Positions 5,456 to 58,915 of a stretch of 60,260 nt of DNA are shown here, in pieces; position 1 is the stretch's first letter, and the number at the start of each line of letters is the position of its first letter. Source of the DNA: Patescibacteria group bacterium (GTDB taxonomy: Bacteria; Patescibacteriota; Patescibacteriia; Magasanikbacterales; UBA922); the NCBI GenBank assembly GCA_028687045.1, contig JAQUAW010000002.1:1-60260 (forward strand), in the 5' to 3' direction. Below the pieces are notes generated by a model. The model worked only from the letters and a program-made list of their open reading frames with translations, had not been told where the DNA came from and did not search any database. The position numbers and the translations under genes are program-made.

Positions 5456-5842
5456 ATGCGTGTCTCTGGAGTAAATATACCAAATGAAAAAAGAGTTCTT
5501 GTAGCTCTTACTTATGTGTACGGTATTGGTTCAACAACTGCCAAGAAAATCTTGGAACAAGCTCAAGTACCACTAACTACACGTACTAAAGATCTTACTC
5601 AAGATCAAGAAGATAAAATTCGTAATTTAGTCGAAAAAGGACATAAAACAGAAGGTGACTTACGTCGTGAAGTTTCTTCAAATATCAAACGTTTGAAAGA
5701 TATTAAATCTTACCGTGGCACACGTCATGCTAAGAGATTACCATCACGTGGTCAAAGAACTAAGACTAACAGTCGTACTACTCGTGGTAATAAGAGAAAT
5801 GTGGCAACTAGTGGTAAAAAACCTACTGCCCAAAAGACCTAA
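5456..5842 (+). CDS. rpsM: 30S ribosomal protein S13
   Basis: [22 protein letters not shown]-terminus plus conserved operon position. Confidence 0.95.
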
Positions 5843-5876: not shown

Positions 5877-6269
5877 ATGGCTACTAAAAAAGTAAAAAAA
5901 GCTAAAAAGAAGAGTTTGCGTTCCGTATCACACGGTAAGGCTTACATTCAAGCTACATTCAATAATACTATTGTTTCAATCACTGATCAAAATGGTGATG
6001 TATTAGGTTGGTCTTCTGCTGGTAGAGTAGGATTCAAAGGACCAAAGAAATCTACACCTTATGCTGCTGGTGTTGTTGTAAAAGAAGTCGCTGAAGCTGT
6101 AAAAAGCTTTGGTATTAAAGAAGTAAATGTCTTTGTAAAAGGTATCGGTGGTGGTCGTGAAGGCGCTATTCGTGCTTTGAATTCCAACGGTATTCAAGTA
6201 TTATCTGTCAAAGATATCACACCTATTCCACACAATGGTTGTCGTCCACCAAAAAGAAGACGCGTATAA
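5877..6269 (+). CDS. rpsK: 30S ribosomal protein S11
   Basis: HGKAYIQATFNNTIVSITDQNGD...TPIPHNGCRPPKRRRV. Confidence 0.95.
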   Translation: MATKKVKKAKKKSLRSVSHGKAYIQATFNNTIVSITDQNGDVLGWSSAGRVGFKGPKKSTPYAAGVVVKEVAEAVKSFGIKEVNVFVKGIGGGREGAIRALNSNGIQVLSVKDITPIPHNGCRPPKRRRV

Positions 6270-15242: not shown

Positions 15243-15345
15243 ATACCGACCACGCCGATTCGACGGGCGGAACAAACAAATTTGTTTAGATGTATTCATT
15301 AGTTTCCACTATAAATTAATATAAACAAATTTAATTTTAAGAAAG

Positions 15346-15377
15346 ATCCCTCGTCGTGCTTTCGCCGACTTCGGGAT
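15346..15377 (+). promoter_or_regulatory. 5'-UTR GC-rich hairpin module, copy b (upstream of ftsX)
   Basis: TTAAGAAAG-ATCCC tc GTCG tgctttcgc CGAC ttc GGGAT; ends 14 nt before ATG 15392. Confidence 0.65.
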
Positions 15378-15391
15378 GACGTAAAAAAATT

Positions 15392-16303
15392 ATGCTATCT
15401 GGATTTTTTCGTATTATAAAATTTTCTTTTCAAGAAATAGTACGCAACATGAGTTTGTCTATTATGACAGTTCTTATTTTGATTTTGATGTTACTATCTA
15501 TAAATACTTTGATGGTTGTCAAAGTTTTGACAGATGAATCTATTATCGCTGTCAAAGATCAAATTGATGTTAGTATTTATTTCAATCCTGAGGCAACACC
15601 TGATGAGATTCAAGAAATTCGAGGATTTGTTAGTGCTTTTCCTGAAGTGGAAAAAGAAACTTTTTTGACTAGTGATGAAGTATTCAATAATTTCAAAAAA
15701 AATTATGCTGATAATCAAGATGTCCTTTCTTCATTAGATGAACTTGGACAAAATCCACTTGGTCCAACTTTGATAATCAAGACTCGTGATCCAAAAGATT
15801 ATGAAAAAATAATCAAAAATCTTAGTTTACCTGAATATGAAAATATAATTGAAGCTAAGACTTTTGCTGATACTCAGACTGCTATTGATAAAATTCATTC
15901 TATTACTACCAATGTCCAAAAATTTACTTATTTTTTGACAATTCTATTTGCTATTATTGCCTTTATAATCATTTTTAACACGATAAGAGTTGCTATCTAT
16001 ACACAAAGAGCTGAAATAGGTATCAAACGTCTTGTAGGGGCAACTAGCTGGTTTATAAGGGGTCCTTATTTGATAGAGTCTTTTATATTTAGTATTATTA
16101 GTGTAGTTATTACTTATTTCCTAGTAGACTTTTTATTGAAATTTTTAGATCCATATATAAGTGTTGTTTTTAACAAAAATGATCTTTTATCAAATTATCT
16201 ATCACAAAATTGGTTGATGGTGGTGGGGATTGAATTTGGAGTAGTATTTTTGCTTACTATTGTTTCTAGTGGTCTTGCGATGAGGAAGTATTTGAGGACG
16301 TAA
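15392..16303 (+). CDS. ftsX: cell division permease-like protein FtsX
   Basis: Four-TM FtsX topology with a large periplasmic loop, directly downstream of ftsE. Confidence 0.85.
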   Translation: MLSGFFRIIKFSFQEIVRNMSLSIMTVLILILMLLSINTLMVVKVLTDESIIAVKDQIDVSIYFNPEATPDEIQEIRGFVSAFPEVEKETFLTSDEVFNNFKKNYADNQDVLSSLDELGQNPLGPTLIIKTRDPKDYEKIIKNLSLPEYENIIEAKTFADTQTAIDKIHSITTNVQKFTYFLTILFAIIAFIIIFNTIRVAIYTQRAEIGIKRLVGATSWFIRGPYLIESFIFSIISVVITYFLVDFLLKFLDPYISVVFNKNDLLSNYLSQNWLMVVGIEFGVVFLLTIVSSGLAMRKYLRT

Positions 16304-16305
16304 CT

Positions 16306-16656
16306 CATAAAAACATTAAAGCATTAAAACATAAAAACACCCCGCTTTTCGTGAAAGACAGGGTGTTTTTTAAATTTGTTTTAAAACTGGGAGACTGCTG
16401 TATAAAAATGTGGCGGATAATTCCCCCTCCTATTAGGAGGGGTTAGGGGAGGTTTAGAGTATAACAAAACGTTTATCTCAAAGATGGACCCCCTCTAACT
16501 CCCCCTGCTAGGGGGAGGATCAATCTTTATTTTGTTATATTTTTTTATAAACAAAACACAAAGTTTCACACTTTTATGCAATAGTCCCTTTGTTTTCATG
16601 TTCTTGTGTTTTCATGTTTTAATGCTTTAATGTTTTTATGTTCTAGTGTTTTAATG
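16306..16656. repeat. CATTAAA-word inverted arms bracketing the whole ftsX/recQ convergent spacer
   Basis: The left arm cataaaaacattaaagcattaaaacataaaaacac (16306-16340) is mirrored by gttttcatgttttaatgctttaatgtttttatg... (16591-16656). The terminator hairpin ACACCC...GGGTGT at about 16335-16371 lies just inside. Confidence 0.8.
16419..16520. mobile_element. ~100-bp GC-rich palindromic doublet (MITE/REPIN-like), copy 1, inverted relative to copies 2 and 3
   Basis: ttccccctcctattaggaggggttagggga...ccccctctaactccccctgctagggggagg; its reverse complement aligns along the full length with 32487-32587. Confidence 0.85.
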
Positions 16657-20017: not shown

Positions 20018-20039
20018 AGTTCATAAGATTTAGAAAAAT

Positions 20040-20070
20040 AAAAAATCACCGTGTTAGCGGTGATTTTTTA
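20040..20070. terminator. bidirectional intrinsic terminator AAAAAATCACCG-tgtta-CGGTGATTTTTT, copy 1
   Basis: Stem flanked by an A-run and a T-run; lies between the convergent greA and DedA genes. Confidence 0.8.
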
Positions 20071-20071
20071 T

Positions 20072-20686
20072 TTAAATTTTTTTGTGAAAAAAAAGATATT
20101 TTATTAGATGATAAGAAAAATAGGTTAAAATAAGAATTAGTAAAAAAAATTCTGTACGGAAAATCCATTTTTCAATATTTGGTAATGATTGACCAAAAAA
20201 GTAAGCAGGCAAAACCAAAAGTATGCTCCAGCCAATTGCACCAAGTATATTCCAGATTGTAAATTGCAATCTTTTCATTTTTAGAGTACCTGCTATAAAT
20301 GGTGCGAATTCTTTCATACTTGGAATGAATCTTGCTAGAAAAATACTTTTTGAACCGTGAACTTCTATAAATGTTTTTGCTTTTGTAATATGACTTTCTT
20401 TTATAAACCAAAAACCTTTGGCGAATATTTTGTTACCAAATTTTCGTCCTAAATAATAATTTATGTTATCTCCTATAATAGCACCTAAAGTTGTAAAAAA
20501 AATAAGGTCACCAGGTTCGAGGTGTGTTTGGCTAGTCGTAGCAGCTATGAGTAATATTGCTGTGGATCCTGGAATAAAAAGACCTACTCCAATAGTAGTT
20601 TCAAACAAAGCAAAAAATAGGGCAATCCAATATCCCCAGAGATGTAAATTGCTTAGTGTTGGTACTAAATTATTTAAGATATCCAT
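20072..20686 (-). CDS. DedA family membrane protein
   Basis: FIPGSTAILLIAAT and LARFIP..KEFAPFIAG motifs typical of DedA/SNARE-associated proteins. Confidence 0.8.
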   Translation of the reverse strand: MDILNNLVPTLSNLHLWGYWIALFFALFETTIGVGLFIPGSTAILLIAATTSQTHLEPGDLIFFTTLGAIIGDNINYYLGRKFGNKIFAKGFWFIKESHITKAKTFIEVHGSKSIFLARFIPSMKEFAPFIAGTLKMKRLQFTIWNILGAIGWSILLVLPAYFFGQSLPNIEKWIFRTEFFLLILILTYFSYHLIKYLFFHKKI

Positions 20687-20726
20687 AGGATTCTATTATA
20701 GAATAATTTTTACTTTTTTACTATAT

Positions 20727-20757
20727 AAAAAAATCACCGTGTTAGCGGTGATTTTTT
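20727..20757. terminator. second, identical copy of the AAAAAATCACCGtgttaGCGGTGATTTTTT hairpin
   Basis: 31-nt core identical to 20040-20070. It sits between the DedA start and the stop of the 20770..21627 gene. Confidence 0.8.
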
Positions 20758-20769
20758 ATGAAAATGTTA

Positions 20770-31488: not shown

Positions 31489-31646
31489 TCATTTTTAATA
31501 AATTATATATTATATTTATACTACCCCTTTATTGTAATTATCGCAAATATATAAAAAATAGATATTTTTAAAAAAACTGAAAATAAAACTAAAAGTTATT
31601 CACATTATAATAACAAAAACAGCTAATTTAGCTGTTTTTTTCTTCG

Positions 31647-31717
31647 TTCGGGGATAGGGATTCGAACCCCAATAGTCAGGATCAAAACCTGAAGTCCTAC
31701 CATTAGACGATCCCCGA
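31647..31717 (-). tRNA. tRNA-Gln (anticodon UUG)
   Basis: Manual cloverleaf on the minus strand: U1-A72 acceptor TCGGGGA/TCCCCGA, TCAGG-TTTTGAT-CCTGA, TGGGG-TTCGAAT-CCCTA. Confidence 0.9.
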
Positions 31718-31789
31718 ATGTTTAAGCCTTAGCTTCACAGAAAACATAATATCACAATAAAGACTTGAAATCAAGTCTTTATGTGGACA

Positions 31790-32473: not shown

Positions 32474-32486
32474 ATATTTCTTTTTA

Positions 32487-32587
32487 TTCTCCCCCTACTA
32501 GGGGGAGTTAGAGGGGGTCCATCTTTGAGCAAAACGTTTTATCTTGCTCCAGACCCCACCTAGCCTCCCCTAATAGGGGAGGAAATC
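32487..32587. mobile_element. ~100-bp GC-rich palindromic doublet, copy 2
   Basis: ttctccccctactagggggagttagagggggtcc...gaccccacctagcctcccctaataggggaggaaatc. Confidence 0.85.
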
Positions 32588-33867: not shown

Positions 33868-33943
33868 TAATTAATTTTGATTATTATTTTAGACGTTTAT
33901 TTCGTCTAAAATAATTTGTTAAATAAGTATAATCTTAAGAAAG

Positions 33944-33971
33944 ATCCCTCGTCGTATTCTCGACTCGGGAT
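33944..33971 (+). promoter_or_regulatory. 5'-UTR GC-rich hairpin module, copy c
   Basis: TATAAT (33928-33) cTTAAGAAAG-ATCCC tc GTCG tattct CGAC tc GGGAT; ends 13 nt before ATG 33985. Confidence 0.65.
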
Positions 33972-35337: not shown

Positions 35338-35348
35338 TCCTGACTTGG

Positions 35349-35450
35349 TTCTCCCCCTAGTAGGGGGAGTTAGAGGGGGTCTATCTTTGAGCTAAACGTT
35401 TTATCTTGCTAAAGACCCCTCCTAGCCTCCCCTAATAAGGGAGGAAATCG
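35349..35450. mobile_element. ~100-bp GC-rich palindromic doublet, copy 3
   Basis: ggttctccccctagtagggggagttagagggggtct...gacccctcctagcctcccctaataagggaggaaatc; same orientation as copy 2. Confidence 0.85.
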
Positions 35451-35483: not shown

Positions 35484-37622
35484 ATGAAGAAAGAAAACCT
35501 CTCAATTTCCGGTATGCACTGCGCCTCATGTGCGGTCAGTATTGAACGTAGTTTGCAAAAACAGCCTGGTATGAAAAGTGCTAGTGTTAATTATGCTTTA
35601 GCCCAAGCCTATCTTGAGTATGATGAAAAGCAAGTCAAAGATGAAGATGTTGCCAAAGCTGTAGAGAGTGCAGGGGATTACAAAGTCATGATTGCTGACG
35701 CCAAAGATAAAACAAAAAATAATACTAAAAAAAGTTTTCAAAAATTTGTTTGGTCACTTATTTTCACTTTGCCGATGCTCGTGGCAATGTTTTTTGATAT
35801 GGCGATGTGGTTCACTTGGGTTTCTCTTGTTTTGTCATTTGTGGTTGTCTTTGTGATTGGTTTTCAGTTTCATCGTGGTATGCTAAGTCAACTAAGACAT
35901 TTTCAAGCCAACATGGATACACTTGTGTCTGTTGGAACTTTGTCAGCTTTTTTTTATAGTGTGTATGCGATGTTTATTGATGGTCACTTATATTTCGAGA
36001 CTGCTGCTGTCATTGTGACTTTGATTTTGCTTGGCAAATATTTGGAAATCAAAAGCAAAGGACGAGCATCAGAAGCTATAAAAAAACTTTTTGCGCTTGG
36101 TGTGAAGAAAGCTCGTCTGCTAGAAAATAATAAAGAAAAAGAAGTTGCTGTCGAAGATTTGCAAGTTGGCGATATCTTGCTTGTCAAAGCAGGGGAGAAG
36201 ATTCCACTTGATGCTAAGATTATTGAAGGTAGTACTTCTATTGATGAATCAATGCTGACAGGTGAAAGTGTAGCTGTGGAAAAAAATATCGGAGACCAAG
36301 TTTTCGCTGCGACTATCAATGGCACTGGCGTTATCAAAATACAAGTAACTAAAATTGCCAGTGAAACTATGCTTTCCAAAATTATAAAATTGGTAGAGCA
36401 AGCTCAAAGTAGCAAAGCTCCAATGCAAAAGTTGGTGGACAAAGTTTCCAGTATTTTCGTGCCAAGTGTGATTGTGATTGCTTTAGTTACTTTTGCAATT
36501 TGGTATTTTGCTTTGGGTTATGGTTTTGAAGCGAGTATTATCAATGCTGTAGCTGTGCTTGTCATTGCTTGTCCTTGTGCTTTGGGTCTTGCAACTCCGA
36601 CAGCTATTATGGTCGGTAGTGGTAAGGGTGCAGAAAAAGGAATTTTGATCAAAGATTCTGAGAGTCTAGAAATAGCTCACAAAATTCAAGTAGTGATGTT
36701 TGATAAGACTGGTACTCTGACACAAGGCAAACCAGAGATTACCAATATTCATATTATCCAAAATAATTTAGAAAAAAAAGAAGCCATGATTTTGGCTTGT
36801 GCTCTTGAAAAACAAAGTGAACATTCACTTGCTTTGGCTTTTGCTAAATTTGCTACAGAAAAAAGTTTGACTATTCCCGAAGCTAAAAAAGTTCAAACAG
36901 TAAAAGGTAGAGGAATAAAAGGTGTAATAAATAATCAAGAAATATTTTTGGGCAACACCAAATTTGTTGCTGAGGAAAAAATAAAAATAAATAAAGACGC
37001 TGAAGAAATTTTTGAAAATTATGCAGAAAAAGGTAAAACACCAATTTATCTTTTTGACAAGAACGAAATCTTGGCTGTCATTGCTGTAGCTGATATTTTG
37101 CGCGGTACTGCCAAAGAAGCGGTACAGAAATTGCAAGACAAAAATATAGAAGTCTATATGATCACAGGTGATCATCGCAAAACTGCGCAGGCTATTGCCA
37201 AGGAACTGGGAATCAACAAATTCGTAGCTGAAGTCTTGCCACAAAATAAGGCAGAGGAAGTGAAGAAGTTACAAGCTCAAAACAAAGTCGTGGCGTTTGT
37301 CGGTGACGGTATCAACGATGCGCCTGCGCTCGCACAAGCCGATTTGGGGCTGGCAATGGGTGGTGGTAGTGATATTGCCCTAGAAACAGGAAATATCGTC
37401 CTAACCAACAGTAATCCCGTCAAAGTCTATGAAGCTATTACACTCTCCAAAAAGACTTTTGCGACTATCAAACAAAACTTGTTTTTTGCTTTTTTCTACA
37501 ATGTTGTGGCTATTCCTTTGGCAGCTCTAGGATTACTCAATCCGATGATTGCGGCTTTGGCTATGAGTCTGAGTAGTGTGTCAGTCGTGGTTAATAGTTT
37601 GCGGATTAGAGTAGGACACTGA
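35484..37622 (+). CDS. copA: copper-translocating P1B-type ATPase
   Basis: HMA GMHCASC, TGES, CPC (ACPCALG), DKTGTLT, and GDGINDAP motifs. Confidence 0.95.
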   Translation: MKKENLSISGMHCASCAVSIERSLQKQPGMKSASVNYALAQAYLEYDEKQVKDEDVAKAVESAGDYKVMIADAKDKTKNNTKKSFQKFVWSLIFTLPMLVAMFFDMAMWFTWVSLVLSFVVVFVIGFQFHRGMLSQLRHFQANMDTLVSVGTLSAFFYSVYAMFIDGHLYFETAAVIVTLILLGKYLEIKSKGRASEAIKKLFALGVKKARLLENNKEKEVAVEDLQVGDILLVKAGEKIPLDAKIIEGSTSIDESMLTGESVAVEKNIGDQVFAATINGTGVIKIQVTKIASETMLSKIIKLVEQAQSSKAPMQKLVDKVSSIFVPSVIVIALVTFAIWYFALGYGFEASIINAVAVLVIACPCALGLATPTAIMVGSGKGAEKGILIKDSESLEIAHKIQVVMFDKTGTLTQGKPEITNIHIIQNNLEKKEAMILACALEKQSEHSLALAFAKFATEKSLTIPEAKKVQTVKGRGIKGVINNQEIFLGNTKFVAEEKIKINKDAEEIFENYAEKGKTPIYLFDKNEILAVIAVADILRGTAKEAVQKLQDKNIEVYMITGDHRKTAQAIAKELGINKFVAEVLPQNKAEEVKKLQAQNKVVAFVGDGINDAPALAQADLGLAMGGGSDIALETGNIVLTNSNPVKVYEAITLSKKTFATIKQNLFFAFFYNVVAIPLAALGLLNPMIAALAMSLSSVSVVVNSLRIRVGH

Positions 37623-37721
37623 TTGCACTGATTATATTGGATTACACTGAGATAAAAAAAGAAGACACTTATGTGTCTTCTTTTAATCTGTGTAATCTTT
37701 TAAAAATCAGTGTAATCAGTG
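37617..37721. repeat. CACTGATTA-word palindromic element 1, arms around terminator GAAGACAC-ttat-GTGTCTTC
   Basis: 5' arm cactgattgcactgattatattggattacactga and 3' arm aatctgtgtaatcttttaaaaatcagtgtaatcagtg are near reverse complements. The element overlaps the copA stop. Confidence 0.85.
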
Positions 37722-37775
37722 TTTGTTTTAGATAGAACTATTGGCTAATATTAGCTAAGAAAGTCCTTTTTACTC

Positions 37776-37838: not shown

Positions 37839-39326
37839 ATGAAAAAATATTTACTTATTACTACAACTTATATTCTATATGTGCTTCTGTCTGTTTTTAT
37901 GAAGCCAGGTATGGTAGCGGCTGCTTCTTATCCAGTCGGTACTCTTATCAAAGTAGCTAATAAAGCTGATATCTATTATGTAGGTTCAGATTCTTATAAA
38001 TACAAAATTCCTGATGAAGCTACTTTTAGAAGTTGGTATAGTGATTTTTCTGGAGTAAAAAATGTTTCTCTTGCTGATTTCAATTTTTACAGAACTGCTA
38101 AATACAATGTTACTGTTGAACCTGTCAAACAATTGGTAAAATTTTCTAACAGTACTAAAGTATATTTAGTAGATTCTGGTGCAACTCTTAGATGGATCTC
38201 TGATGAAAAAACAGCTCAAACTTATTATGGTAGTGATTGGTACAAAAATATTTTGATATTGCCAAGTAAAGATTTCAATGATTATAAATTTGGTAGTGAT
38301 TTGAATATCAGTACTAAATTTTCTAAGACTTACGCAGCAGCTTTGAGTACTAGTATTGATGCTGAACTTAGAAATAGAGGTATTATAGCTTCCAAAGTTT
38401 CGAATGGTATGGTAGCTGCTGTTGAGCTTGAACCACTTTTGAGATCTCTTACTGAGAATCTTAGTGCAGGGTTACAACCATCGTTCAATAGTTCTAAAAA
38501 TAGTTATTTTATCAATGCTAAATTTACAGAAACTTCTTTTAGTCTTAAACCTTTGGCAACAGATACTGACTTGTATGTTTATGTAAATGGTACTCCTGTA
38601 GCTACTTATGCTAGTATAAATCTTGCTTTGGATATTGGTACAAATAATTATACTATCAAAGTAGTCAATCAAAATGGTACAGAAAATGTTTATATTTTGG
38701 AAGTATTACGTGAAGGTCCAAATGAAAATAATTATATTAGAAGTATCTCTGAAAACTTGCGTGATAATTTTACACCAGGTTTTAAAGCTGAAACTAGAAA
38801 ATATGATTTGGTAGCTCAGTATGATGAAAGTGTTTTGAATCTAAATATTTTAGCTGAAGATACTCTTACTAATATTTATGTAAATGATAAAAAGTTATCT
38901 AGTGGTTATAAAGGAACTGCTAGTATCTCACTAAATTATGGTGATAGCAAAGTAACTATTAGATCAGTATCACAAAATGGTGTTACTACATATTACGAAA
39001 TAGCCGTAAAACGTTATCAATATCCAAAATTAGGTGACAATGATTTAGCTTCTTTGAAAACGAACTTTGTTGGTGGTTTTTCTCCAGCTTTTGATTCAAA
39101 ACATAGTATCTACTTTATTAGTGCAGACGTAGATGTTGAAAGATTCTTAGTAACAGCTAAAGCTAAAAATAGTAAAGCTAGAGTGATTATCGATGGTACT
39201 CAAACTACTTCTAAATATGTAACTCTTGATTATGGTGAAAATAATATAAAAGTAGTAGTAGAAATACCAGATGCTCCTGAATTCAATAAAACTTATACTC
39301 TCAAAGTATATAGAGAATTGGAATAA
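37839..39326 (+). CDS. secreted protein with about four cadherin-like beta-sandwich repeats
   Basis: Signal peptide plus repeated L..L....G.L.P.F......Y...V modules (e.g. LRSLTENLSAGLQPSFNSSKNSYFINA). Confidence 0.65.
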   Translation: MKKYLLITTTYILYVLLSVFMKPGMVAAASYPVGTLIKVANKADIYYVGSDSYKYKIPDEATFRSWYSDFSGVKNVSLADFNFYRTAKYNVTVEPVKQLVKFSNSTKVYLVDSGATLRWISDEKTAQTYYGSDWYKNILILPSKDFNDYKFGSDLNISTKFSKTYAAALSTSIDAELRNRGIIASKVSNGMVAAVELEPLLRSLTENLSAGLQPSFNSSKNSYFINAKFTETSFSLKPLATDTDLYVYVNGTPVATYASINLALDIGTNNYTIKVVNQNGTENVYILEVLREGPNENNYIRSISENLRDNFTPGFKAETRKYDLVAQYDESVLNLNILAEDTLTNIYVNDKKLSSGYKGTASISLNYGDSKVTIRSVSQNGVTTYYEIAVKRYQYPKLGDNDLASLKTNFVGGFSPAFDSKHSIYFISADVDVERFLVTAKAKNSKARVIIDGTQTTSKYVTLDYGENNIKVVVEIPDAPEFNKTYTLKVYRELE

Positions 39327-39328
39327 AA

Positions 39329-39439
39329 CACTGATTACACAGATTATATTGGATTACACTGAATTACAAAAAAACGTAAACCTTACAAGGTTTACGTTTT
39401 TTAATCTGTGTAATCTTTTTTAAATCAATGTAATCAGTG
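39329..39439. repeat. CACTGATTA-word palindromic element 2, arms around terminator ACGTAAACC-ttaca-GGTTTACGT
   Basis: Arms match element 1 in most positions; the central hairpin is unrelated. It fills the whole spacer between the convergent stops at 39326 and 39442. Confidence 0.85.
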
Positions 39440-39441
39440 TT

Positions 39442-40470
39442 TTATTGTTTTTTATTTTTCAAAGCTAATTGTCCACAAGCTGCATTGATATCCTGACCAA
39501 AAGCGAAACGTTCAGAAACTTTGATACCTGCGCGCATTAAAATATTTTTGAATTTTTTGATATTTTGTGTTAGAGATGGTTTGAATTTTCCAGTTGGATT
39601 GTAGCGGATTAGATTGACCATATAAAGTGAAGTATCTTCTCCAAGTAAGCGTATCAATTGTCTAGCATGTTCTTCTTTGTCATTGATGCCATCCATCATA
39701 AGATATTCAAACATAATTTGGCGACCTCTATCATTTTTGTATTCTTCGACAGCAGCCATTACTTTTTCAATACCAAAACGTTTGTTGATAGGCATCAATT
39801 CTGAGCGTAGTGCATCATTTGGAGCATGCAGGGAAATAGCAAGATTTAGTTGCAGTGGTTCTTTGGCAAATTTTTTGATACCGGTTACGACGCCACTTGT
39901 AGAAACAGAAATATGTCTGGCACCAATATTGAAGGCATCTTTGTCATTTAATAATTTGATAGAAGCCATGACATTGTCATAGTTCATAAATGGTTCACCC
40001 ATACCCATGTAGACAATATTGGTAATGCGAGTATTTTCTTTGTAATTTTTTTTCAAGTATCTACCAAAGAATAAGACTTGTAAAACAATTTCACTAACAG
40101 TCAAATTACGACCAAGACCTAGAGTACCTGTGGCACAAAAAACACAACCAACGGGACAACCCACTTGTGAAGAAACACAGACAGTATTACGACCGTCTTT
40201 GTGCATCATAAGGACGGTCTCAATTTGAGAACCATCTTCAAGCAAAATAAGTGCCTTGGTAGTATCAGTTTTATTGGAATCAAAAGCAGTAGACTTAATT
40301 TCAAGAGGACATTCTTCTTTTAGTCTATCGCGAATAGCTTTTGGTAAAGTGGTATTTTCATCCCAATCTTCTATTAAATCAACAAAAACAGCTTGCCAAG
40401 CTTGTTTGTAACGAAAGCTTGGTTCACCTTTTAAAACTTCTTTTAATTTGTCTAAGTTCATAAAGTTCAT
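39442..40470 (-). CDS. rlmN: 23S rRNA/tRNA adenine-C2 methyltransferase RlmN (radical SAM)
   Basis: CPVGCVFCATG radical-SAM cluster, MGMGEP, and C-terminal AACGQL. Confidence 0.9.
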   Translation of the reverse strand: MNFMNLDKLKEVLKGEPSFRYKQAWQAVFVDLIEDWDENTTLPKAIRDRLKEECPLEIKSTAFDSNKTDTTKALILLEDGSQIETVLMMHKDGRNTVCVSSQVGCPVGCVFCATGTLGLGRNLTVSEIVLQVLFFGRYLKKNYKENTRITNIVYMGMGEPFMNYDNVMASIKLLNDKDAFNIGARHISVSTSGVVTGIKKFAKEPLQLNLAISLHAPNDALRSELMPINKRFGIEKVMAAVEEYKNDRGRQIMFEYLMMDGINDKEEHARQLIRLLGEDTSLYMVNLIRYNPTGKFKPSLTQNIKKFKNILMRAGIKVSERFAFGQDINAACGQLALKNKKQ

Positions 40471-41689: not shown

Positions 41690-41774
41690 AATTAATTTGT
41701 TTAATTATTAGTATATTTACGTTATGTTAACTTTCGGCATATAAAATATATGGCATAAAAAGTTAATTTTGTAG

Positions 41775-41845
41775 TTCGGGACTAGGGATTCGAACCCCAA
41801 TACTCAGGACCAGAACCTGAAGTCCTACCATTAGACGAGTCCCGA
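41775..41845 (-). tRNA. tRNA-Gln (anticodon CUG)
   Basis: Manual cloverleaf: TCGGGAC/GTCCCGA acceptor (U1-A72), TCAGG-TTCTGGT-CCTGA, and the same T arm as the UUG isoacceptor. Confidence 0.9.
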
Positions 41846-41988
41846 ATGACGTAAAATTGGCTTACATCTATATACGACTGGTTTTATAATACTTGTAGTA
41901 TATGAATGTGAGTTAGTTTTACGTTGGCAATTAGATAATTTATGAATGTTTTCTCAAATCAGTGTTTAAATATTTATTAGCTTTGTTT

Positions 41989-52516: not shown

Positions 52517-52861
52517 ATGAAAATACTTTTACGTTGGTTTCTCAACGCAGGATCTCTTTTACTCATTGCCAATTATTTACCAGGTATGGCTTTGGGTGGA
52601 ATTTATTCAGCTTTGATTACAGTTTTGGTTTTGGGTCTGGTCAATGCACTTATTAGACCAATTATTTTTATAATTTCTTTGCCTGTAAATATCTTGACCC
52701 TGGGACTTTTTACTTTTGTTATCAATGCTCTTATGTTTTGGTTTGCTTCTAGTATTGTCAAAGGTTTTAGTATAGAAAATTTTAGTACCGCACTATTTGC
52801 TTCTATTTTATTTTCAATATTGAGTTTTGCCGTTAGTTTACTACTTAAAAAAGAAAATTAA
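52517..52861 (+). CDS. phage holin family IV / DUF360-like four-TM membrane protein
   Basis: 114 aa with the LNA.SL.L.A.....G pattern and four TM segments. Confidence 0.65.
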   Translation: MKILLRWFLNAGSLLLIANYLPGMALGGIYSALITVLVLGLVNALIRPIIFIISLPVNILTLGLFTFVINALMFWFASSIVKGFSIENFSTALFASILFSILSFAVSLLLKKEN

Positions 52862-52869
52862 TTCTTCGT

Positions 52870-53360
52870 GCAACTCACCCCTAACCCCTCTCTTGTAAAG
52901 AGAGGGGAAATTGTGTAAAAAATTTTTGTTATGGATTCGCAATTACAAGAAATAAAAAAGAGATGTAGGATATTGCGAATTAATCAGACTAGGTGTGAAA
53001 GTATATTGTGGAATTGTTTGCGTAATCGAAGATTTTATAATTTGAAGTTTTATCGTCAGTATCCTATAAAATTTATTTTTGATAAGAAAATAAATTATTT
53101 TATTGCAGATTTCTATTGTCACGAGAGAAAATTGATTATAGAAGTTGATGGTAAGGTTCATGAATTTCAAAAAGACTATGACAATATGAGGGAGAATGTT
53201 TTGAAAGAGATGGGGATCAAAATTATAAGATTTACTAATGAAGAAATAGAAGAAAATATAAATAAGGTTTTATTACTTTTGAAAAATATAATTTAAATAA
53301 AAAAACTTCACTATTAGTTTCCCCTCCCTTTTTAAGGGAGGGGCTAGGGGAGAGTTTAGC
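52870..53360 (+). mobile_element. DUF559 gene unit bracketed by ~41-nt inverted hairpin modules
   Basis: Left module is at 52870-52910. The reverse complement of the right module (53318-53360) aligns with it: gcaactcacccctaacccctctcttgtaaagagaggggaaa versus gctaaactctcccctagcccctcccttaaaaagggaggggaaa. Confidence 0.75.
52931..53296 (+). CDS. DUF559 (Vsr-like endonuclease fold) domain protein
   Basis: R.LR.NQT..E..LW..LRNRRF...KF.RQ.PI..fIaDFYC...KLIIEVDG..H....yD..R...L...GI.IIRF.N.EI. Confidence 0.85.
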   Translation: MDSQLQEIKKRCRILRINQTRCESILWNCLRNRRFYNLKFYRQYPIKFIFDKKINYFIADFYCHERKLIIEVDGKVHEFQKDYDNMRENVLKEMGIKIIRFTNEEIEENINKVLLLLKNII

Positions 53361-53367
53361 TTAATTT

Positions 53368-54057
53368 ATGAAAAATAACCTAAAAATAATTTCAGTCGGT
53401 GGTTCAATTGTTATTCCAAAAACTGGTTTTGATATTAATTTTCTCAAAAAATTTCGTCAGATGATTTTGGCTGAAGTGAAGAAAGGTCAAAAATTTATTT
53501 TGATTATTGGAGGAGGAAGTACGGCTCGGATTTATCAATCTGCTTTGCAAGAAACTGTTAAAATAAAAGAAGAAAATTTGGATTGGATGGGAATTGGAGC
53601 GACGATTATCAATGCTAATTTTGTAAGATTAATGTTTGGTGAAGTAGCTTACAAAGATGTGGTAACTAATCCAACAAAAAAAATAAAAACTAACAAAGCT
53701 ATTATTGTGGCTGCTGGCTACAAACCTGGATGCAGTACAGATTATGATGCTGTTCTATTTGCTAAGACTTATGGTGCTAAGGAAATGTTGAATTTATCAA
53801 ATATTGAATATGTTTATGACAAAGATCCTAGAAAGTTTCCTGATGCAAAAATAATTGAAAATATTGATTGGAAAACATTTCGCAAAGAAATAGTAGGGGA
53901 TATTTGGCAACCTGGCAAAAGTGCACCTTTTGATCCTGTAGCAAGTAAAGCTGCTGAGAAGCTGAAGCTAAAAGTAAGTATTTTACAAGGGACGAATTTG
54001 GAGGAAGTAAAAAATGCTTTGGGAGGAAAGAAATTCAAGGGGACAGTGATTGAATAA
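53368..54057 (+). CDS. pyrH: UMP kinase (archaeal-type amino-acid-kinase fold)
   Basis: KIISVGGSIV, IIGGGSTAR, and GYKPGCSTDYDAV motifs. Confidence 0.65.
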   Translation: MKNNLKIISVGGSIVIPKTGFDINFLKKFRQMILAEVKKGQKFILIIGGGSTARIYQSALQETVKIKEENLDWMGIGATIINANFVRLMFGEVAYKDVVTNPTKKIKTNKAIIVAAGYKPGCSTDYDAVLFAKTYGAKEMLNLSNIEYVYDKDPRKFPDAKIIENIDWKTFRKEIVGDIWQPGKSAPFDPVASKAAEKLKLKVSILQGTNLEEVKNALGGKKFKGTVIE

Positions 54058-54738: not shown

Positions 54739-54918
54739 AAATTTTTATTATATTTATTATAATCATTATACTTTAAAAATTCATAATTTTCTAGTCGAGA
54801 TAATAAACTTGATTTTTCTCTCAAAATGGCTTAAGATTAGTTTGTAAGTGACTTGTTTAGACGGAATTTAGAATCAATTGTGAGTTTTGTTAGTTAAATA
54901 AGTTTAAATTTAAGAAAG

Positions 54919-54947
54919 ACCCCTCCCGTGCTTCGCCGGTTCAGGGT
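54919..54947 (+). promoter_or_regulatory. 5'-UTR GC-rich hairpin module, copy d (upstream of dnaG)
   Basis: TTAAGAAAG-ACCCC tc CCG tgcttcgc CGG ttca GGGT; ends 12 nt before ATG 54960. Confidence 0.6.
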
Positions 54948-56886: not shown

Positions 56887-58320
56887 ATGCCACGCGGCAA
56901 AAAGAGTACAATTAAATTAGCAAAAACCAAAGTAAGTAAAAAGGTTGTTGCGACCATCAAAAAAACTGTTAAAAAAACAGTTCCCAAATTAGCTAAAAAA
57001 ACCACAGCTAAGGCTAAGGTTTTCAAAGCAAATACAATTACCCGAAAAAATACTACTAAGCGGGTTACAAAAAATACACAAATAGTTAAGTCAAAAAAAA
57101 CAAGTTCAAAACCGTTTAAACCGACTCACCAAAATGTGAGACGACCGTCTGATCATCTTAAAAAACCTAGCGTCAAACTTGACAAATCACAATTTGACAA
57201 GAATTTTGACATACCTACAGAAGATCAAATCTCTAAACTTGTGAAAAAAGGACGTGAAAGAGGATTTTTGACAGAACATGAAATCCTTATACTTTTTTCT
57301 AGACTTGAGCAATACTTAGATGTTTATGAATCTTTCTTAGATTTGGTAGACAAAAATAGTGTTTCTGTTATAGAAGTACAACAAGGTGGTTTGTTGGGAA
57401 AGACTTACAATGATCAACGTGACGATGTCATGACAGGTCTTCAAGGTGATCAGCCTGATGTAGCTTCTGGTTTGTCTTTTGATTTGGGAAATATTTCTCA
57501 AGATTCTATCCAAATGTATTTGCGTGAAATTGGTAAGGTACCACTTCTTACAGCTGATGAAGAAGTCAGTCTGGCCAAACGTCGTGAAAGAGGGGATAAA
57601 AATGCTGAACGAAAAATGATTGAAGCTAACTTGCGTCTAGTTGTTTCTATTGCTAAGAAATTCGTGGGTAAATCATTGTCAATGCTTGATCTGATTCAAG
57701 AAGGAAATATTGGTTTGTTCCGTGCGGTGAAAAAATTTGATTATCGCAAAGGTTACAAATTTTCTACTTATGCTACTTGGTGGATAAGACAAGCTATCAC
57801 TCGTGCTTTGGCTGACCATTCTCGTACCATTCGTATTCCTGTTCACATGGTCGAGACAATCAACAGATTGCAACAAGTTTCTCGTCATTTGCTTCAAGAT
57901 TTGGGTCGTGATCCAACTCCAGAAGAAATTGCCGCTGAAATGGGTGAGGAAGTAGAAAAAGTAAAACATATTATCAAAATTTCTCAAGACACTGTTTCAC
58001 TTGAAACTTCAGTCGGTGACGATGATGACGATGACACATCTTTGGCAGATTTTATCAAAGATGTAAAAAGTGTCAGTCCATCTCAAGCGGCTGGTGTGGA
58101 ACTTCTCAAAGATTATATCAAAGAGGCAGTCAAAGATCTTTCTCCTCGTGAGAAAAAAATCTTGGAAATGCGTTTTGGTCTAGACGATGGTGTCACTCAT
58201 ACTTTGGAAGAAGTGGGCAAAGAATTTGGTGTGACTCGTGAACGTATTCGTCAGATTGAATCAAAAGCACTTGATAAGATTAAAGATTTTGATGTGATTA
58301 AGAAGCTTAGAGACTATTAA
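56887..58320 (+). CDS. rpoD: RNA polymerase sigma factor RpoD with Lys-rich N-terminal extension
   Basis: Regions 2 to 4 are recognisable ([49 protein letters not shown]). The first ~100 aa are K/T-rich low complexity. Confidence 0.95.
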
Positions 58321-58341
58321 AACATAAAAACATTAAAACAT

Positions 58342-58374
58342 AAAAACAACCGTGAGAAAAAGCGGTTGTTTTTG
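58342..58374 (+). terminator. intrinsic terminator after rpoD
   Basis: ACAACCG-tgagaaaaag-CGGTTGT followed by TTTTTG; preceded by CATAAAAACATTAAAACATAAAAAC words. Confidence 0.8.
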
Positions 58375-58396
58375 TATTATTTATTTGAACAAAAAA

Positions 58397-58915
58397 TTAT
58401 TTGCTGAAAACAGATACGAATCTTCCTTCGTAGAGACGTTTGACTACTTCTGCTGGATTGAATATTTTGCCATTCATACAAACATAAATACCTGGTTTTA
58501 GCTCATGAATTTTTGCAATAGAATAACCTAGATTAAATGGAGCATCAGATGGTGAAAAACCAAGAAGTGGAATCATACTGCCTGTAAAAATAATAATTTT
58601 ATCATGTTTACCAAGATTTGCATCTAAATAGCGTGCTGTGTCTGGCATGGTATAGGTTCCGTGGGTCACAATAAATTTTTTGTGAGGACTTTTTTTAATT
58701 TCTTTCAATACGTTTGCAAGATCACTTTTTTTCAAAGCTCTACTATCTTTCATACAAATGGTTGTAAACTCTGTTTTTTCGTGAAGTTTAAGGCTTTTTA
58801 TATAGGCTGGTATTGATGATTCTTTCAAAGTGTCTACTGTATCTTTTACACCATTATAAAAAGAATCTATGGTACCACCAGTTATAATGAAATGGATTGT
58901 ATTTTTTTGTGTCAT
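58397..58915 (-). CDS. asparaginase/glutaminase N-terminal-domain protein
   Basis: ITGGTIDS (TGGTI) motif and HGT..M pattern; only 172 aa. Confidence 0.55.
   Translation of the reverse strand: MTQKNTIHFIITGGTIDSFYNGVKDTVDTLKESSIPAYIKSLKLHEKTEFTTICMKDSRALKKSDLANVLKEIKKSPHKKFIVTHGTYTMPDTARYLDANLGKHDKIIIFTGSMIPLLGFSPSDAPFNLGYSIAKIHELKPGIYVCMNGKIFNPAEVVKRLYEGRFVSVFSK

Follow-up and report, generated by a model that had tools for sequence, protein, structure and literature searches.

A DUF559 gene between inverted hairpin modules in a Magasanikbacteria genome: a candidate selfish nuclease/palindrome element

Introduction

The 23S rRNA intervening sequences consist of a stem-forming inverted repeat with an optional small open reading frame (ORF) at its centre, and the yeast GC clusters and Allomyces double-hairpin elements are GC-rich mobile hairpins of AT-rich mitochondrial genomes, found in spacers and in genes. 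For the mitochondrial GC hairpin clusters, a tie to mobile endonuclease ORFs has been suspected. Here we describe a bacterial locus that joins a short GC-rich hairpin repeat to a small gene for a predicted nuclease of the DUF559 family. It lies at positions 52870-53360 of a 60,260-nucleotide stretch of contig JAQUAW010000002.1 (assembly GCA_028687045.1, Patescibacteria group bacterium), which was analysed as a whole and is called the window hereafter.

The anatomy of this locus equals that of the REP-associated tyrosine transposases (RAYTs), in which the enzyme gene is flanked by repetitive extragenic palindromic (REP) sequences and the REPs are also dispersed as inverted doublets, the REPINs (PMC3116915, PMC3337134); RAYTs are described there as single-copy and vertically inherited. 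On the side of the enzyme, VSR, DUF559 and the homing endonuclease of Protein Data Bank (PDB) entry 3r3p fall into one PD-(D/E)XK group (PMC3424549). That homing endonuclease, I-Bth0305I, works as a homodimer and cleaves a pseudopalindrome of 14 bp whose centre lies beside its insertion site (PMC3239194), and a "fractured gene" arrangement of Vsr-like homing endonucleases is attributed to Dassa et al. 2009 as cited in the same paper. A DUF559 protein of Caulobacter acts as a Vsr-like repair nuclease (PMC12907096), so other roles exist in the wider DUF559 family. [quoted passage not shown] The first-pass annotation of the window, made by a model from the sequence alone, had known of no description of a DUF559 gene paired with dispersed hairpins. 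We found none in the open-access literature either: in full texts, neither flanking hairpins nor MITEs nor dispersed palindromes were linked with genes of the DUF559 or Vsr-like kind, which is not proof of novelty, and the motif strings of the module returned only human and viral primer noise.

We hypothesise that 52870-53360 is a selfish nuclease/palindrome element, spreading through a copying process akin to homing, a reading to which we assign a probability of roughly 50%, and below we set out the evidence that carries it together with the explanations that compete with it.

Results

A DUF559 gene between inverted modules

The window is AT-rich (G+C 27-37%) and its closest relatives are metagenome-assembled genomes (MAGs) of Candidatus Magasanikbacteria, in the candidate phyla radiation (CPR, or Patescibacteria). 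Its one DUF559 gene, on the plus strand at 52931-53296, encodes a predicted Vsr-like PD-(D/E)XK nuclease of 121 aa. As had been proposed, the ORF takes up the spacer between two genes, which proved to be a Phage_holin_4_2-family gene on the 5' side (52517-52861) and an AA_kinase gene on the 3' side (53368-54057). The left module (52870-52910, plus strand) has its box outermost and reads gcaaCTCACCCC box, TAA linker, hairpin CCCCTCTCTT-gta-AAGAGAGGGG at 52885-52907, and AAA; the hairpin has a perfect 10-bp stem and a DNA fold of -11.1 kcal/mol (z = -4.9). The right module (53318-53360, minus strand) is inverted and reads hairpin CCCCTCCCTT-ttt-AAGGGAGGGG at 53321-53343, also with a perfect 10-bp stem, CTA linker and GGGGAGAGTttagc box. 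The general plan, over about 41 nt, combines a CTCACCCC box with a C-arm/G-arm hairpin of 10 bp whose 5' arm is pure pyrimidine. Both modules were read directly and are as the annotation had quoted them, the left one matching the reverse complement of the right at 34/41 positions with one 2-nt indel. DUF559 is the sole ORF of this module-gene-module element, which has no recognised transposase. Judged by its sequence, 52870-53360 is a discrete insertion in which the DUF559 gene sits amid a split palindrome, each arm being one ~41-nt module.

The annotation had counted eight copies of the module in 60 kb, and this number is far from what chance would give. The window was searched for hairpins whose stem is perfect over 6 bp or more, whose loop spans 3-8 nt and one of whose arms consists of C and T alone and includes four or more C. 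Eight sites were returned, which are the eight modules and nothing else, against an average of 0.03, and never more than 1, in 60 Markov shuffles; none of the hairpins returned was G-arm-first. We also built an nhmmer profile hidden Markov model (HMM) from 100 modules of other phyla, none from the lineage of the window. It matched the left module at E = 1.7e-7 and the right module at E = 5e-5, and all 16 of its matches in the window at E <= 10 fell inside the eight modules. This profile and the explicit hairpin search were used instead of a covariance model, since a MAFFT alignment of the 100 modules misplaced the 3' arm.

The DUF559 protein

The assignment of the ORF to a DUF559/Vsr-like family held up in the profile search, where Pfam PF04480 scored 98.6 bits against a curated cut-off of 20.6 (E = 2.4e-28); NCBIfam PRK09767 scored 64.8 for a cut-off of 218, and the protein is therefore not that equivalog. 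By sequence it also matched PDB 3hrl, a DUF559 crystal structure (E = 5e-12). The AlphaFold2 model of the 121-aa protein had a mean predicted local distance difference test score (pLDDT) of 89.5, and Foldseek ranked 3hrl first, then 3r3p, the catalytic domain of I-Bth0305I (probability 1.0, template modelling (TM) score 0.52/0.63), and then PvuRts1I/AbaSI. Residues D60, E71, D73, H77 and D84 are invariant across 25 homologues. The invariant E, D, H and D residues may make up a composite EDxHD motif, the local motif reading E-x-D-x3-H. From the model, the protein is predicted to have a restriction-endonuclease-like fold with an acidic/His core, from which we infer that it would cut DNA. PADLOC returned weak partial matches to the nuclease domains of DpdF and mREase and nothing more. 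Between the window and L002 (L numbers such as L002 or L083 denote loci from relatives and other bacteria used for comparison), the ratio of nonsynonymous to synonymous substitution rates (dN/dS) of the gene is 0.20, and the gene is under purifying selection.

The pairing of gene and hairpin across phyla

DUF559 loci were collected by a pattern/tblastn scan with one genome per species, queried with an alignment of the 25 DUF559 proteins. The resulting 80 loci come from Bacteroidota, Cyanobacteria, Ignavibacteria, Margulisiibacteriota, Cloacimonadota, Chloroflexi, CPR and some Proteobacteria, a patchy distribution in which homologues 40-55% identical occur in unrelated phyla. Within 200 nt of the gene, C-arm/G-arm hairpins reach a density of 3.7 per kb, compared with 0.072 per kb elsewhere, an enrichment of about 50-fold, so that DUF559 homologues outside the window are indeed flanked by analogous hairpins, a point that the annotation had put forward for checking. 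Under a strict criterion, among loci with both flanks available, hairpins stand on both sides of the gene in 39/75 and on one side in 14/75. The consensus of the module across phyla is nnC(C/A)CTCA(C/T)CCC(C), 2-5 nt, CCCCTCTC(C/T), loop, GAGAGGGG; it is kept from CPR to Bacteroidota, Cyanobacteria, Ignavibacteria and Chloroflexi, with the C arm strictly first. The arrangement of the modules varies, and the box-outside order on both sides, as in the window, is the commonest single class (12 loci). The DUF559 gene and the hairpin unit are specifically paired, and this pairing is far more general than the window alone shows.

Two other identities were considered for the unit and its carrier. The module was compared with the attC sites of integrons and rejected as one: its outer ends, gtGCAAC and GTTTAGC, do not match RYYYAAC ... 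GTTRRRY, and across phyla the outer box has the consensus CCTCACCCC. An integron cassette was likewise dismissed, there being neither array nor integrase around what are single copies between housekeeping genes. Phages do not seem to be the main carrier either, as the 41 DUF559 loci in viral contigs are mostly distant (28-41% identity) and only two of them (L181, L182) are flanked by modules.

At 14 of the 80 loci, the reading frame of DUF559 continues without a stop for over 80 codons past the domain. By Pfam, the host ORFs include leucyl-tRNA synthetase (LeuRS), MetH, HsdR, HsdM, MmeI/Eco57I-type enzymes and an N6/N4 methylase, and DUF559 is internal in each. The LeuRS insert has 140 aa; on Thermus LeuRS it falls between residues 236 and 238, immediately ahead of the editing domain. 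Read in frame, the modules translate to Pro/Gly-rich peptides, and neither Pfam on the host ORFs nor Rfam gave an intein or intron signal. With an open frame through the modules and linkers rich in Pro and Gly encoded there, the element would be able to sit in coding genes without intron or intein. In other CPR relatives, single modules and doublets of modules also occur inside apparent coding regions. The LeuRS genes of two Bacteroidia (L054 5041-8424 and L086 5080-8577) carry two or three more single modules in frame (for instance ..PPSPLEKGPGDE.., ..TPLLWRGARGEA..). In alignments to Thermus LeuRS these leave the overall length unaltered, as if they stood in place of surface loops.

Some small DUF559 proteins are labelled "leucyl-tRNA synthetase" in the Joint Genome Institute (JGI) annotation. 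This label was examined and rejected: P0039 lies between a lexA-like gene and imuB-dnaE2 and not in LeuRS; the label probably stems from LeuRS genes that carry the insert. In L177-L180, the DUF559 gene (L177 5001-5363, with the JGI leucyl-tRNA synthetase label) stands between a lexA-like repressor gene and an imuB-dnaE2 cassette, a neighbourhood that suggests SOS-linked expression of DUF559 in this lineage.

Gain and loss of the element among close relatives

To compare the same junction in relatives, 80 metagenomic loci were retrieved via the neighbouring AA_kinase gene. Among them, DUF559 with both modules at the holin|AA_kinase junction was found in the window and the L002/L100 lineage only. 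In L097, whose AA_kinase is 93% identical, and in L098 and L101-L104 (82-87%), holin and AA_kinase are about 60 nt apart, and this empty spacer holds an ordinary terminator-like hairpin, with neither DUF559 nor C/G hairpin. The part that differs between occupied and empty alleles is the spacer at 52862-53367, with an insertion unit of about 490 bp inside it. The module-gene-module unit comes and goes whole between close relatives. Where it is present it is well kept: in L002, an 84% relative, the left module is identical at 41/41 positions despite a synonymous divergence of 0.4-0.66 in the genes that flank it, and from there to the ATG a single 1-nt indel is the only difference in the spacer. 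The right side is identical at 57/71 positions, the right module being less conserved than the left. The synonymous divergence (dS) of the DUF559 gene between window and L002 is 0.43, for 0.5-0.66 in neighbouring genes; this similarity and the conserved left arm argue that over the interval separating the two the element was inherited vertically, with protein and left arm under constraint. A possible direct repeat of 13-18 nt around the DUF559 gene was seen in L083 only.

The doublets of the module, in which two copies meet head-to-head without a gene, are polymorphic as well. The doublet at 32483 is missing from the same junction in L222, which is 95% identical and belongs to the same 474-kb contig as L097. 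The one at 35345 is present at the same junction in L222 and absent from L223 and L225 (84-85% relatives), and L002 has a doublet 3' of its sigma-70 gene where the window has none. In the loop of one hairpin of this last doublet, which is of the type B described below, sits an insertion sequence (IS) of the IS1595 family (DDE_Tnp_IS1595, L002 14862-15625, ends cggtagtgcataca.../...tgtacactaccg); the syntenic site of the window, 58320-58400, has neither the doublet nor the IS1595 element.

These alleles also bear on the possibility that the modules are cis-regulatory hairpins, acting as terminators, RNA-stabilising stem-loops or insulators, which accompany an acquired gene, and that the doublets are bidirectional terminators. 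Such a role would be compatible with the stability of the hairpins, with the intergenic position of all eight window copies, one doublet lying between convergent genes, and with the loss, at the occupied site, of the terminator hairpin that empty alleles carry. The modules themselves do not qualify as intrinsic terminators: there is no T-tract 3' of the stems, and a scan placed no GC stem with T-tract, nor any other terminator- or promoter-like site, at the modules. Rfam gave no match either, with tRNAs as the only hits over the whole window at gathering score and nothing better than E = 0.4 at 52800-53420 in a permissive search. Moreover, modules stand in frame within ORFs in other lineages, their sequence as well as their structure is conserved across phyla with a strict C-arm-first polarity, and insertion polymorphism was observed, all of which makes a regulatory identity very improbable.

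Gene-less doublets belong to a sister subfamily

The annotation had reported three palindromes of about 100 bp in the window, and these are real. They lie at 16420-16523, 32483-32586 (in the opposite orientation to the first, with a three-hairpin DNA fold at z = -4.2) and 35345-35448, neither strand being assigned to any of them. They are about 104 nt long, 80-90% identical to one another and all intergenic. Each is a doublet of the type that we call type B, and none contains a gene; the one at 16420 has the order [hairpin][TTAGGGGAGG box], centre ..AACAAAAC|GTTTATC.., [CCCCCTCTAAC box][hairpin]. Their alignment to the flanks of the DUF559 gene was compared with 2000 shuffles: one half of each doublet scored 15-23 for a null maximum of 14-15, as the claimed kinship requires, and the other half passed only weakly, the architecture being shared more than the sequence.

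The MAG of the 84% relative holds a second DUF559 gene, at L083, whose product of 117 aa shares 47% identity with the window protein. "Single-copy", as the window gene had been called, is thus right for the window and wrong for this relative. The flanks of the L083 gene are the two halves of a head-to-head doublet and match window 16420-16523 nearly base for base, with 46-49 of 53-55 positions identical in the right half. In the left arm of L083 a 31-nt insert (5904-5934, ttccacccaaggcggatcagtcctttggctga) parts the hairpin from the G-box; it is absent from the otherwise identical arm of L226 and from the window doublets. The point at which gene and ribosome-binding site have been inserted, in L226 as in L083, is ..AAAAC^GT(C/T)T.., the dyad of the gene-less doublet. 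By these alignments, the doublets of the window are gene-less members of a sister subfamily whose cognate gene lies outside this window. With the gene of that subfamily at the dyad in L083 and L226, the doublets are not the window gene's own unit joined differently, and the earlier idea of one unit used in two ways has to be given up. The window gene itself belongs to the tail-to-tail, box-outside type. This type also occurs without a gene: L014 has such copies on either side of its gene, L012 has one (5621-5727) immediately upstream of its DUF559 gene, and L030 is a further case.

The first-pass annotation had seen in this arrangement the logic of REPIN/RAYT with another nuclease. Such a system would be a domesticated one, in which a host-retained DUF559 disperses and maintains non-autonomous doublets and the flanking repeats are the relic of an ancestral element. 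The anatomical part of this view stands, as do the dispersed gene-less doublets and the non-Y1 enzyme. Gene-less units outnumber genes (six halves to one gene in the window, and 0.07 hairpins per kb away from DUF559), each DUF559 subfamily has its own type of unit, and the window-L002 dS, being like that of the neighbours, fits vertical co-inheritance. Domestication, the other part, does not agree with a gene that is present or absent together with its modules among 82-93% relatives, with at least two paralogues in one MAG, with 40-55% homologues scattered over unrelated phyla, or with an element in frame inside host genes; nor is the enzyme a HUH/Y1 transposase, and it has no known strand-transfer chemistry. 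We therefore consider a RAYT-like domesticated system unlikely, the behaviour being closer to that of a homing-endonuclease gene, or of a MITE with its parent element, than to that of a RAYT.

Separate arms for DUF559 and 23S_rRNA_IVP

The Wzy_C|Gmd|epimerase locus was compared in five Magasanikbacteria lineages. Its first slot, Wzy_C|Gmd, is taken by DUF559 in a type-B doublet in L083 and L226-228 and by a 23S_rRNA_IVP (IVP) gene in L229-232, and is empty in L233. In the second slot, L083 and L229 have a type-B doublet without a gene, L226 has an IVP gene, L233 has IVP arms without a gene, and L231 has neither. The arms of the IVP genes are inverted tandem octamers, and a C/G hairpin within 200 nt was found in 0/10 IVP genes; the two DUF559 paralogues of one MAG, for their part, are each in their own palindrome type. 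That each small gene keeps its own arms favours a functional coupling over a generic cassette boundary.

Octamer arms of the same style surround the IVP genes of L226 (~4590-4625/4985-5055) and L229 (~3005-3045/3400-3495) and are found without a gene in L233 (4595-4680). In the window, inverted arms of tandem octamers (CATAAAAA CATTAAAG CATTAAAA ...) lie at 16306-16340/16606-16640, a pair that is 97% complementary and encloses the 16420 doublet, at 8960-8995/9048-9084 and at 58316-58351. From their sequence, the octamer-arm elements may form a second family of palindromes with or without a small ORF. Slots without C/G doublets contain AT-rich inverted repeats of aattttaaatttt-type units (L223 9900-10090, L225 11320-11510, L231 4590-4715, L233 3340-3500), and these units are a further spacer-filling repeat family of these genomes.

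The IVP cassettes are relevant to a second way of reading the locus, in which modules and doublets are autonomous MITE-like or hairpin elements, moved by host replication and repair or by another transposase, and DUF559 either landed as a passenger at a palindrome's fragile centre or is a nuclease of cellular repair or defence that travels along. Here the IVP gene would be an instance of non-nuclease cargo in arms of its own. The variable arrangement of modules around DUF559 could be explained in this way too, as could the 11/13 hairpin-carrying AA_kinase-anchored CPR loci that have no DUF559 gene nearby, and both the Vsr-like repair role of the Caulobacter protein (PMC12907096) and the weak PADLOC similarity to nuclease domains of defence proteins suit a travelling nuclease. 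Chance hitch-hiking, however, is hard to credit with a ~50-fold enrichment and a module sequence conserved across phyla, and the IVP cassettes in the same slots never use C/G hairpins. The gene is under purifying selection within a unit that is gained and lost, and no transposase is consistently nearby, the one IS1595 being an insertion into a doublet hairpin with inverted ends of its own. On this evidence we hold a passenger role to be improbable.

Other features of the window

Apart from the C/G modules, several repeats were noted in the window. Near-identical inverted-arm pairs of CACTGATTA/TGTAATC-type repeats (families D9, D12, D15 and D17) at 37605-37724 and 39317-39442 flank the gene at 37839-39326. 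A conserved motif of about 43 nt, TAAAyAArTwTAAwyTTAAGAAAGAyCCCTCs..., occurs at 15322-15364, 33920-33962 and 54895-54937, in each case 25-70 nt upstream of a plus-strand gene (starting at 15392, 33985 and 54960), and could serve these genes as a common promoter or leader. Nearly identical terminator-like hairpins (AAAAATCACCGTGTTAGCGGTGATTTTTTAT) stand at 20029-20080 and 20717-20768, on either side of the gene at 20072-20686. Two tRNA-Gln genes with TTG and CTG anticodons, at 31634-31720 and 41762-41848, are 86% identical over 87 nt, short flanks included.

Discussion

Our preferred reading of 52870-53360, a selfish nuclease/palindrome element, would work by the following steps; the cutting by the protein, the position of the cut and the copying route are proposed by analogy with I-Bth0305I. 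A dimer of the DUF559 protein would recognise its cognate palindrome and cut at or near the symmetry centre, or at hairpins that have extruded. If repair then took a copy with the gene as its template, gene-less palindromes would receive the gene, which is homing, and nuclease-induced breaks with templated copying, or allelic replacement via the flanking genes, could carry palindromes with or without the gene to new sites. Each hairpin is itself palindromic, and the two hairpins of one element are in consequence also direct repeats. Recombination or slippage between them may remove the gene, with solo units or doublets as what remains, a deletion that could account for the excess of gene-less copies over genes.

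Several observations weigh against this homing-like element. No allelic pair in which one and the same site has its doublet once with and once without the gene was found in the Wzy_C|Gmd locus of the five lineages, where the slot holds DUF559, 23S_rRNA_IVP or nothing and never a gene-less doublet. Neither a clean insertion junction nor a target-site duplication was seen, as the whole spacers of occupied and empty alleles are unalignable at both of the polymorphic sites that were closely compared. The protein, of about 120 aa, is without a separate DNA-binding domain such as I-Bth0305I has. Solo units (box-hairpin-box) or full doublets beside the gene are frequent across phyla and fit poorly with a strict picture of a gene within its own target. 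Finally, 23S_rRNA_IVP, which is not a known nuclease, has parallel arms with or without its gene, and a palindrome with a central ORF may hence arise without any nuclease.

In a wider and more tentative proposal, which we think possible and still rather less probable than not, DUF559 with its C/G-hairpin modules could represent an unrecognised class of bacterial mobile element, with a PD-(D/E)XK nuclease of about 120 aa as its only enzyme. It would multiply both gene and gene-less palindromes by nuclease-triggered templated copying and invade essential genes such as LeuRS and MetH in frame by means of Pro/Gly-linker arms, and the octamer-armed IVP cassettes, possibly along with the rRNA intervening sequences, would be its second member.

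The selfish nuclease/palindrome reading has consequences beyond this locus. DUF559, which is among the most widespread nuclease domains of unknown function, gains a testable candidate substrate in its own flanking palindrome. The pairing suggests a source for a GC-rich hairpin repeat that extends from CPR to Cyanobacteria and Bacteroidota and adds peptides of the PSPLPL..RGEG type to many annotated proteins. It also suggests, beside introns and inteins, a third lodging for a selfish nuclease gene in essential genes, namely in-frame palindromic linkers. Such an element would explain hot-spot spacers of the streamlined CPR genomes, and if the nuclease is specific for a palindrome of ~40-100 bp, it could potentially serve as a compact new tool enzyme.

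Comparison with known systems

The Vsr very-short-patch repair endonuclease shares its fold superfamily and its acidic/His core with the DUF559 protein, and differs in that the DUF559 gene is part of a mobile indel and not a housekeeping repair gene; no cytosine methyltransferase partner was seen adjacent to it, though none was looked for. The 23S_rRNA_IVP elements of the relatives resemble the DUF559 elements in having their own inverted arms, in using the same slots and in occurring without the gene too, and are set apart by octamer arms and by an unrelated four-helix-bundle protein that is not a known nuclease. The mitochondrial GC clusters resemble the modules as GC-rich double hairpins of an AT-rich genome; they are organellar, of other sequence and without an established DUF559 partner. 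With the Rickettsia palindromic elements the modules and doublets have in common that short palindromes lie within ORFs, as happens here in several lineages. Those elements, however, have no enzyme gene and are confined to a single genus, whereas here DUF559 accompanies a subset of copies in many phyla.

The three closest comparisons each cover a part of the element. As in REPIN-RAYT, an enzyme gene stands amid inverted hairpin units, the unit is dispersed as doublets and each subfamily is paired with its own unit; unlike there, the enzyme is PD-(D/E)XK/Vsr-like, the gene lies in the centre of a doublet, and the unit is gained and lost, multi-copy, patchy and found in frame in genes. As with MITEs and their parent IS, there are terminal inverted repeats (34/41), gene-less versions with the two ends, and insertion polymorphism, but DDE, HUH, serine and tyrosine transposases are lacking here, target-site duplication was not seen, and the version without the gene keeps a near-perfect palindromic symmetry across its centre instead of being an arbitrary internal deletion. 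With the "EDxHD" homing endonucleases of the I-Bth0305I type, the element shares the nuclease fold, a gene at the centre of a (pseudo)palindrome and the interruption of host genes. It differs from them in that the vehicle is a hairpin palindrome open in frame, with no intron or intein, that the candidate target is a dispersed repeat family and not one conserved gene site, and that DUF559 is a single domain of ~120 aa where I-Bth0305I is multidomain. The element at 52870-53360 can accordingly be described as a variant of a homing-endonuclease gene, of a MITE with its parent element and of REPIN/RAYT, in a pairing of nuclease and palindrome that is apparently undescribed.

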